Positions 31,398 to 40,199 of a stretch of DNA of 64,000 nt are shown piece by piece. The stretch lies in NCBI RefSeq assembly GCF_001677475.2, contig NZ_CP015229.1. One strand, 5' to 3'. Positions within the stretch are counted from its first letter, which is position 1. Each line of letters opens with the position of its first letter. The notes under the pieces were generated by a model. It ran no database searches, was not told the origin of the DNA, and saw nothing but the letters and a program-made list of their open reading frames with translations. Made by a program: the position numbers and the translations under genes. This DNA is from Escherichia coli. GTDB taxonomy: Bacteria > Pseudomonadota > Gammaproteobacteria > Enterobacterales > Enterobacteriaceae.

Positions 31398-34300
31398 TTA
31401 ATAATACTCTACACATAAGCCAGAAGACTTTCCTGTCCCAAGCTCTGATATACCAGTTTCAGGATTAAATTTCTCGTGTACCCCTAAGAGCTGAGTACTT
31501 GTCCAATAATCCGTACCGCTAAAAGCGTTCCCATAAGTTTTCAAATTACCATATTCGCCCCACAACGTACCTACTTTTCGCGGTACTACCCCACCGCTTG
31601 GCCGCTGCGCTAATTCTAAAGATGACGGCATTTGACCATAGCTACATGAAGTATTTATGATATCCCAGGTATTACTACTGCTAGCACCTAAACTAGTAAA
31701 CCATTTTTTAATCTTGAATTTAAATACAACATCATTCCCTTTACCATTCTTGGGTTTCCCAGTAATAGTAACTTCACTTCTTATCAGCACAGATAATGTT
31801 ACTTCTCCATTACTGTCAACATTAATTCCATAAATCCCAGCCGTCCAATTATAATCCGTATTTTTCATATTATGGGTTAGTAACAGCGTGAATTTTGCAC
31901 CATCAAACCCTGTTTCTGGAAAACCATCTGTCGCCCTGAATTTTACACCATTAACACTCAGCGACTCGACTTCCACAAAAGGAAGGATGGTATAGGATGG
32001 TTGTCCGTATATACGCCAACCTTTAATCTCCATAAATGAAGTTAAATTTTCTCCTTCTTTGTAGGCCATATATGTACGTTCATATATGCCATCACCCACA
32101 TATCTCCATTTTTCCCCTTCTTTCTTTTCTACATTTTGTAAGTATACTGCATCATCCAGCAAATCCAGACCGTTATCCACCGCATTTCCAAAATCATCAA
32201 CTAATAAAACACTGACAGGTAAATCCGCCCCTTCCACTACTAAAACTTCTCGTATACGAAGCTGTGAACCAAGCGGACTCACTTCACCTGGTTTGATAGT
32301 GTAATTGTTTGAATAATTGGCATCGCTCCAACCAGCCATCTTCAGTTGCGCATTCAAATTCGCTTCCGCAAAATGCGCCATATACTGTCTTTTATATTGA
32401 CCATTGCCGTTGTAAACCCAATTATTGCCCTGGATCGCATCCGCATTCCTGACTTGTACGTTTTCCTCATTAAGCTGAACAACACCATCAGTAATAAAGT
32501 TACCCTGGGCATCTTTAAGAACAACGGTCACCGTTATGCTATCCCCAGCGATATATATCGTTTTGTCCGCGACAATCGTGGATTGAGTTTTTGCCGCTGC
32601 ACCTGGTTGTATTCCGTATAATGAGGACTTAATCTCCGCTGCCCATGTTTTTAATTTCAGACTGGCAACCAGATTTTCCTCGGCAACCCATGCTGTCCAG
32701 ACAATGGTATATTCACCATTATTCTGCTCGACCCACTGCATAGAATCGGGAGTTGCGCCGCCTACCGCGAAACTATCAATATATGACTCGATGACTTCTG
32801 ATGTCAGCCCGAAAGCAGGGTTACCAAACTCATCCCGCAACGTTACTGTGACGGTTAATGGCTCCCCGGCGATATATGCCGATTTATCTGTCCTGATAGC
32901 AGAATTTGCCTGCACCGGAGCACCGCTGTGGATGGAATAACTCTCTGATTGTTTACTGCTGCCCCACTCAGACAACTTCAACGTCGCGTGGTGAGAGTCT
33001 CCAGCCATTTGCGCCGACCATGTAGCAGTATAAACACCGGCGGTTTCAGACCATCCTCCTGAACGTACGGCTCCTTCCACTATTACGTTATCACCAGACA
33101 GTAAGGACTCGCCCCCTTCAACCAGGTTACCGTGCGCGTCTTTCAGCGTCACGGCGACGGTTATGGTCTCGCCAGCGGTGTAGGCGTTTTTATCCGTAGC
33201 GATAGTTGATGTGGCTTGCGCCGGAGAACCGGACTGTATGTCATAGCGATCTGACGTTACGCCATCACTCCACGTCTGCAATTGCAGGTTGGCGTGCTGA
33301 TTGGTACTGGCAATCGTCGCCATTCGGGTTGTGGTATACACGCCACCTGATTCAACCCAGCTTCCCGTTTCTGACGGGTCGGTGCCAGCCACCGTCAGCA
33401 CACCATTAGCGGCTAACTGTGAAGCTGCACCGGTTACCAGATTATCGAACGCATCCCGGAGCGTTACCGTGATGGTGATGGTCTCTCCAACCGTGTAGTT
33501 CGACTTATTTGTTTCAACGGTTGAAGTGAGCTGCGATGCGGCACCCGGTACAAAGGTGACGTTCTGGCTCAGGCTGCTGTTGTTGATGCTGGTGGTGACC
33601 GCACTAATTCCTGCCGTCTGGCTGGTGACACTGATCTCCACCGTGCCATCCGGCTGCGTGGTGACCGTCGGAGCAACCGTTGCGCTGTTGTCTGCAATCA
33701 CGCTGACTGTCTGCCCGGCAAGCGTATTACCGTTAGCATCAGTGACCTTCACCTGCAGCGTATTCGCCGTCGCGCCGTCAGCCACTGAGCCGTCCTTAAT
33801 GACCACCAGATCAGCGATCTGCGCCGTCCTGACATCGGCAACAAACGTCACGTTCCGGCTCTGGCTGCTGTTGTTAATGCTGGCGGTGACTACACTGGTG
33901 CCCGCCGTCTGGCTGGTGACACTGATCTCCACCGTCCCGTCTGGCCCTGTGATGACCGTCGGGGCAGTCGTTGCGCCGTTGCCTCCCAACACGCTGACCG
34001 TCTGTCCGGCAAGCGCATTGCCGAACGCATCGGTGACCCTCGCCCGCAGCGTGTTCGCCGTCGAACCGTCCGCCTCTGAACCATCCTTAATGACCACCAG
34101 GTCCGCGATCTGCGCCGTCCTGACATCGGCGATAAATGTCACGTTACTGCTCGAGGTGCTGTTGTTGATGGTTGCAGTGACTGTACTGATCCCCGCCGTC
34201 TGACTGGTGACACTGATCTCCACCGTACCGTCCGGCCCTGTGATGGCAGTCGGAGCGACCGTTGCACCGTTGTCCGCCAACACGCTCACCGTCTGTCCGG

Positions 34301-40199: not shown

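Follow-up and report, generated by a model that had tools for sequence, protein, structure and literature searches.

Gene content of the window and identity of its largest gene

We analyzed a 64,000-nucleotide stretch of Escherichia coli DNA (contig NZ_CP015229.1 of assembly GCF_001677475.2, hereafter the window) and focused on its longest open reading frame (ORF), a minus-strand gene that lies between the HilA-like regulator gene eilA and nepI (Table 1). An earlier note on the window, made without database searches, had described this ORF as the largest gene present and as encoding a 2933-aa inverse autotransporter of the intimin/invasin family, with a barrel, a LysM domain, Ig-like repeats, and a distinct C-terminal domain. 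The ORF list and the translation agree with this description: the coordinates and length are exact, the frame opens with ATG, and its one stop codon is terminal. Each of the four components was also verified.

We compared the protein to the NCBIfam models of type Ve (inverse autotransporter) proteins. It scored 2964.3 bits against NF040978 (inverse autotransporter adhesin IatC), above the cut-off of 2400, and residues 1–1065 align end to end with profile positions 1–1065. The other type Ve models, among them those of intimin, SinH, and YchO, scored far under their cut-offs. An identical 2933-aa protein is present in GenBank under the name “inverse autotransporter adhesin IatC [Escherichia coli]” (ANO91618.1 and others), and an exact-sequence look-up recorded it from 18 contigs, of which the longest is a 5.5-Mb chromosome. 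At the nucleotide level, a megablast comparison with 5,426 complete E. coli genomes returned full-length matches of the same 8802-bp length at 93.2% identity, including that of strain SMS-3-5. These matches are annotated as “inverse autotransporter adhesin EaeX/Air” or iatC. The 8802-bp allele is present in 38 complete genomes, whereas the 3′ end of the gene (2.1 kb) was found in 743 of the 5,426 (~14%). This 3′ segment shares 98.4% identity with air from the enteroaggregative E. coli (EAEC) strain 042. The gene order of the window is, gene for gene, that of SMS-3-5, strain 48, and 042, with air between eilA and nepI. Because the IatC model is passed, the exact protein is in GenBank, the gene matches those of SMS-3-5 and 042, and the gene order is identical, the gene is almost certainly air (eaeX, iatC) of E. 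coli, encoding a type Ve adhesin of the intimin/invasin family. We saw no sequence evidence that contradicts this assignment.

Air, the “enteroaggregative immunoglobulin repeat protein”, is known from the literature as an adhesin and serves to mark EAEC (PMC3256949; PMC7188757). Goh et al. 2019 cloned the SMS-3-5 gene EcSMS35_4024 (8,802 bp) as iatC, located its product on the cell surface, and found that over-expression promotes biofilm (PMC6714894). Several points qualify our reading of the gene. The same study observed neither autoaggregation nor binding to extracellular-matrix proteins with IatC (PMC6714894), and the published experiments concern orthologues and none this particular allele. 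Control of air/eaeX by EilA rests on secondary citations; one such source, which refers to Sheikh et al. 2006, states that eaeX and the eip genes are modulated by EilA (PMC4210603). As for adherence, published reports ascribe a role to EilA alone. The reading given by the earlier note is thus correct but not novel, because the gene had already been described as Air, EaeX, and IatC. The gene is a known one, and what is fresh here is allelic only, a distinct array of 11 tandem units.

Table 1. Features of the air gene and its surroundings (positions in the window; residues refer to the 2933-aa protein)
Feature	Position	Strand	Basis or remark
air / eaeX / iatC coding sequence	31398..40199	minus	2933 codons + stop; ORF, NCBIfam NF040978, orthologues, identical GenBank protein
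Shine-Dalgarno-like AGGGA	40206..40210	minus	6 nt before ATG at 40199; read from sequence
Predicted signal peptide, residues 1 to ~43	40071..40199	minus	hydropathy; layout conserved in YeeJ-type paralogues
Periplasmic LysM domain, residues ~62–117	39849..40016	minus	AlphaFold2 fold + Foldseek; insertion between helix 2 and strand 2
Inverse-autotransporter beta-barrel translocator, residues 149–430	38910..39755	minus	Pfam PF11924, PDB barrels
First passenger segment, putative intimin D00 equivalent, residues 431–536	38592..38909	minus	NCBIfam intimin alignment
Six non-identical Ig-like domains, residues 537–1150	36750..38591	minus	Pfam Big_1 / Invasin_D3; own HMMs, two types
11 tandem Big_1 domains, 97 aa / 291 bp each, residues 1151–2217	33549..36749	minus	Tandem Repeats Finder, Pfam, unit tables
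Five helix-containing invasin-D3-like Ig-like domains, residues 2225–2739	31983..33527	minus	AlphaFold2 model + own HMM
Invasin D4-like Ig domain, residues ~2744–2836	31692..31970	minus	Pfam Invasin_D4 E = 9e-11; 1CWV alignment; model
C-terminal alpha/beta domain, residues ~2837–2933	31401..31691	minus	homologous to invasin D5; phmmer + Foldseek vs 1CWV
eilA, HilA-like regulator gene	29649..31346	+	NCBIfam NF009037, 951 bits vs cut-off 589; RefSeq annotation of orthologous locus
Bidirectional terminator (likely), perfect hairpin, 13-bp stem	31356..31385		terminator scan; in 51-bp air-eilA gap
SicA-like chaperone gene	24384-24881		
Translocon subunit gene, SipB/YopB-like	25129-26910		
ORF at EipC position, 376 aa	26923-28053		no NCBIfam family match
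SipD/IpaD-like needle-tip protein gene	28097-29446		
nepI	40402..41634	minus	upstream of air, same strand
selC (tRNA-Sec)	19807-19901		

Start codon and predicted signal peptide

The earlier note had placed a hydrophobic segment about 25 residues after the annotated N-terminus and had therefore considered the true start not obvious. The spacing is right, as the segment begins at about Leu27 behind a charged 26-residue stretch, but the doubt is resolved in favor of the ATG at 40199, the long n-region being a feature of the family. This ATG is the first start following an in-frame TGA two codons upstream and is preceded by a Shine-Dalgarno-like AGGGA, whereas the sole in-frame alternative ahead of the hydrophobic stretch, a TTG at codon 20, lacks a comparable ribosome-binding site. 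We aligned N-terminal homologues retrieved with residues 1–185; these are fragments of at most 317 aa. Paralogues that are 54–58% identical over this region, which we take to be YeeJ, begin MLARSGKVSMATKK, with a Met at the same column and a charged stretch of equal length. The Prokaryotic Genome Annotation Pipeline (PGAP) places the start of five orthologues at the same ATG. Given that it is the first start after the stop, the AGGGA, the paralogue Met, and the PGAP agreement, the annotated ATG stands. The 130 nt upstream are identical in three of the five orthologues compared; the other two differ at 4 positions, none of them within ~85 nt of the ATG. Over codons 1–26 the five orthologues carry one or two changes only, too few for a test of synonymous against non-synonymous substitution.

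The signal-like N-terminus that had been proposed is apparent from hydropathy, and its layout is conserved in the paralogues, which keep the motif CGxGxxLRRLTAGICLITQxxFPxxAAA in this region. It consists of a basic, charged 26-residue n-region and an h-region, LTAGICLITQTIFPVMA, an 18-residue hydrophobic stretch. The hydropathy maximum falls at residues 27–42 and VMA-A fits the -3/-1 rule, so that cleavage is predicted to occur probably after VMA, at residue ~43. The signal peptide of intimin is similarly long.

LysM domain, barrel, and first passenger segment

The earlier note had also suggested a LysM-like peptidoglycan-binding motif. The Pfam LysM match is below threshold (E = 0.13, residues 77–98), but the predicted fold is clear. 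An AlphaFold2 model of residues 1–185 is confident only at residues 61–120 (predicted local distance difference test, pLDDT, 72–86), where it has the order strand-helix-helix-strand (strands 67–71 and 113–117, helices 78–84 and 89–95). Nearly all Foldseek matches of this unit in the PDB are LysM domains, including those of MltD and intimin (2MPW), with a template modelling score of ~0.8 against isolated LysM structures. Despite the Pfam result, we retained the LysM assignment because the fold test was positive. The LysM block is also the most conserved among the homologues and holds most of the invariant columns. Periplasmic LysM domains occur in the large inverse autotransporters intimin, YeeJ, IatC, and IatD.

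The region described as resembling the intimin/invasin translocator is matched by the Pfam profile PF11924 (IAT_beta) at residues 149–423 with E = 2.3e-108, ahead of the passenger, and also by two barrels of known structure, that of invasin (4E1T, E = 5e-80) and that of intimin (4E1S, E = 4e-68). In the alignment to the NCBIfam intimin model, residues 149–529 correspond to intimin positions 171–548. Residues 431–536, which have no Pfam match of their own, would by this homology adopt a D00-like fold.

That the intimin model aligns with the barrel and D00 region (357 bits) would fit an intimin proper that binds a translocated Tir-type receptor. We give this reading practically no chance. The score is far under the cut-off of 1400, and the C-terminus matches invasin and FdeC, with no intimin passenger structure among the matches listed. 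Furthermore, the ORFs beside the tRNA gene selC match core genes of SMS-3-5 in length, so an island seems not to be inserted at that site, and annotation of the stretch from 24.4 to 44.5 kb revealed no intimin-type gene.

Ig-like rod and C-terminal tip

The passenger contains 24 Ig-like domains, in line with the estimate of more than 20 in the earlier note. Of these, 22 were detected by Pfam or by our own Hidden Markov Models (HMMs); the D00-like and D4-like domains complete the count. The six-domain block begins at residues of about 537, 639, 738, 843, 949, and 1048. Residues 2225–2739 were modeled by AlphaFold2 as five beta-sandwich units (mean pLDDT 89.6), were recovered by our own HMM with E-values of 1e-39 to 1e-46, and are similar to the FdeC structure 4E9L.

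The distinct C-terminal domain that had been put forward as a candidate tip proved homologous to invasin D4-D5. The last ~190 residues align to this part of 1CWV with E = 8e-20 (phmmer), and the top Foldseek match is 1CWV (E = 7.5e-26), followed by FdeC. Invasin D5 is C-type-lectin-like. The protein has four cysteines, two in the predicted signal peptide and the others at Cys2852 and Cys2929. The latter pair is nearly invariant among homologues, and its counterparts in the invasin alignment are Cys907 and the C-terminal Cys.

With the sequence alignment, the best structural match, and the disulfide cysteines all pointing to invasin, the protein might be supposed to work as Yersinia invasin does, its D4-D5-like superdomain binding beta-1 integrins and driving uptake by the host cell. 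Asp911 in D5 of invasin is essential for beta-1 integrin binding. In the 1CWV alignment, Asp911 is replaced by Gln2856 and Asp811 is aligned with Thr, with an Asp one position later; the invasin-type integrin site is therefore not conserved. Sequence identity in the tip region is low, and the absence of extracellular-matrix protein binding by IatC (PMC6714894) also speaks against an invasin-like mode of action, which we consider improbable.

Tandem repeat array and allelic variation

We examined the array of tandem Big_1 units, which is where the alleles differ. Tandem Repeats Finder reports a period of 291, 11.0 copies, and 84% matches; the period is exact, without indels, and each unit matches Pfam Big_1 with E of ~1e-19. 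The units are mutually 77–91% identical, and exact repeats within the array reach 53 bp at most. Compared to SMS-3-5 in ungapped 300-bp windows, the gene is mostly 96–99% identical outside nt 3300–6600 (the first window is at 95% and the final 102 bp are at 92%), whereas identity falls to 81–90% inside this interval, which corresponds to the array. Positional pairs of units from the two arrays average 85.3% identity and non-positional pairs 84.4%; given these near-equal values, positional orthology with SMS-3-5 is gone. It is likewise absent in comparisons with the 20-unit array of strain 48 and with the array of 042.

The number of units is 11 here and in SMS-3-5 and 20 in strain 48 (array at 6134–11947 in the coordinates of that locus). 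Gene lengths elsewhere are 11,424 bp (strain 48 and PS10-3), 11,421 bp (042), 11,991 bp (F9792), and 5,238 bp (PapRG-04-4). Goh et al. 2019 found no evidence of repeat-number variation in IatC (PMC6714894); in contrast to that statement, the complete genomes that we examined do show such variation.

Between array units, the synonymous divergence (dS) is 0.40 and the ratio of non-synonymous to synonymous divergence (dN/dS) is 0.30, whereas dN/dS between alleles is 0.135 in the flanking parts of the gene. The units are old and diverged, under purifying selection that is somewhat relaxed.

Three explanations of the array were considered and rejected. The 11-unit array is not a deletion derivative of a 20-unit array: the identity of its units does not exceed 92% against those of strain 48 or 95% against those of 042, and the best-matching units do not occur in collinear order. 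Concerted evolution (homogenization) of the units is ruled out by the dS of 0.40, and positive selection across the whole unit by the dN/dS of 0.30.

An array of this kind also raises the question of whether, behind an intact frame, the length of the gene is an assembly artefact arising from a collapsed repeat array, or whether the gene is a silent relic. Other strains have 20 or more units in genes of 11,421–11,991 bp, very many broken “partial” copies are present in public draft assemblies, and the island is AT-rich. AT-rich DNA is commonly silenced by H-NS. We nonetheless regard the artefact or relic as very improbable. With 9–23% divergence between units and no identical stretch of more than 53 bases, the units can be placed by reads; in view of this divergence and of the short longest exact repeat, a collapsed assembly is unlikely. 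Eighteen contigs, a complete chromosome among them, encode the identical protein, the 8802-bp allele recurs in 38 complete genomes, and dN/dS (0.30 for the array, 0.135 for the remainder of the gene) indicates purifying selection.

Because the unit number varies and positional orthology is lost in a gene that is otherwise mostly 96–99% identical, we tentatively suggest, as a possibility that we rate below an even chance, that the array is a rapidly reshuffled, length-variable module that makes the adhesin differ in reach or antigenicity from lineage to lineage, rather than a mere passive spacer.

Genomic context and the eip island

The air gene is part of a low-GC island named eip (eicA-eipBCD-eilA-air), located between yicS and nepI and ~4.5 kb from selC. 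As had been noted, it is transcribed from the nepI side, nepI being upstream on the same strand, and converges on the regulator gene eilA. A terminator-like hairpin follows nepI at 40348–40329, which suggests that air may have its own promoter within the 200-bp nepI-air gap. Beyond nepI lie a RelE/ParE-HTH (helix-turn-helix) pair and then yicN, adeQ, adeD, and uhp. The core genes uhpABCT reach no more than 98.8% identity with any of the 5,426 complete genomes, so the source strain is not one of these, although the protein look-up assigns it to E. coli.

The GC content is 61% in the tandem array, 52–54% in the 5′ part encoding the signal peptide, LysM domain, and barrel, 39% in the tip, and 35–38% in the eip genes. 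The air gene is thus a compositional mosaic, the tip resembling the adjacent eip genes.

The eip genes (24384–29446) are low in GC, and injectisome genes were not seen among the annotated ORFs of the window. Their products presumably require a type III system whose genes are located elsewhere; the literature points to ETT2. The central part of the ORF at the EipC position has no megablast alignment to the 383-aa SMS-3-5 gene, leaving a gap between 24330 and 25235 in SMS-3-5 locus coordinates, and the genes beside it are ~95% identical to those of SMS-3-5. This ORF is a translocon-like gene that is locally hypervariable.

The four ORFs after selC match setC, yicL, nlpA, and yicS of SMS-3-5 in length and order. 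The ORFs flanking selC are ordinary-sized, with no island-sized gap. As those downstream match the lengths of these core genes, selC here appears to be free of an inserted island. SMS-3-5 has phage-like genes at this site.

Between nepI and yicN (41814–42480) are two small overlapping ORFs. In the orthologous locus the annotation is that of a toxin of the RelE/ParE family and an HTH antitoxin, and MqsA/NadS-type models match the second ORF. The longest ORF of nepI has 410 aa, yet the NepI profile begins at residue 17 and the RefSeq orthologues are 1185 bp long, so the real nepI start is probably at 41586.

Proposed export and display of the adhesin

By homology to intimin and invasin, we propose how the protein would be exported and anchored. 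The predicted Sec signal peptide with its long n-region would direct it to the periplasm, and the N-terminal 12-stranded beta-barrel (residues 149–430) would insert into the outer membrane. Through the pore of this barrel the C-terminal passenger would be exported in hairpin form. The LysM domain would remain periplasmic and anchor the protein to peptidoglycan. The 24 Ig-like domains of the passenger, including the 11 tandem 97-aa Big_1 units, would make up a rod, and this rod would carry the putatively disulfide-bonded, invasin-D4-D5-like and C-type-lectin-like tip far off the cell surface. Receptor binding by the tip is putative.

Significance and public records

The value of this locus as a discovery is small, as air is a named virulence-associated marker in EAEC typing and the orthologue IatC has been cloned and tested. 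Its practical value lies in a fully parsed domain map of one 11-unit allele. Alleles differ in the repeat array and not in the tip or barrel, which is relevant to typing schemes and those based on polymerase chain reaction (PCR), and to antibody and vaccine work.

Draft assemblies contain hundreds of “partial” fragments of the Air/IatC protein. Among them are entries wrongly named “acylphosphatase” and others assigned to Klebsiella, Salmonella, or Shigella. The air gene is routinely broken, and sometimes mislabeled, in short-read data.

Comparison with known systems

We compared the window protein and its locus to the named members of the family. Intimin (4E1S, 2MPW) shares the barrel (E = 4e-68) and the LysM fold, and its long signal peptide resembles the one predicted here. 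It differs in that the window protein reaches only 357 bits against the cut-off of 1400 of the intimin model NF033627 and has a far longer passenger; the locus of enterocyte effacement (LEE) island has no room beside selC here, and the tir gene was not searched for.

The invasin of Yersinia pseudotuberculosis (1CWV, 4E1T) has a related barrel (E = 5e-80), a related tip (E = 8e-20), and the same cysteine pair, but four Ig-like domains instead of 24; its Asp911 corresponds to Gln here, and a LysM domain is present in the window protein. YeeJ of E. coli follows the same plan as a paralogue, with a long signal n-region, LysM domain, and barrel and 54–58% identity over residues 1–185. It is encoded at another chromosomal locus and carries another passenger, and the window protein scores on the IatC equivalog only.

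Orthologues are Air/EaeX of EAEC 042 and IatC of SMS-3-5. The former lies in the same island with the same neighbors, including eilA, and its 3′ 2.1 kb are 98.4% identical, but the gene, at 11,421 bp, is longer than the window gene by 2,619 bp (nine 291-bp units). The latter (EcSMS35_4024) shares the locus, the 8802-bp length, the domain order, and the NCBIfam equivalog. IatC and the window protein are 91.5% identical in amino-acid sequence overall, whereas their 11-unit arrays are 81–90% identical and consist of units without positional counterparts.

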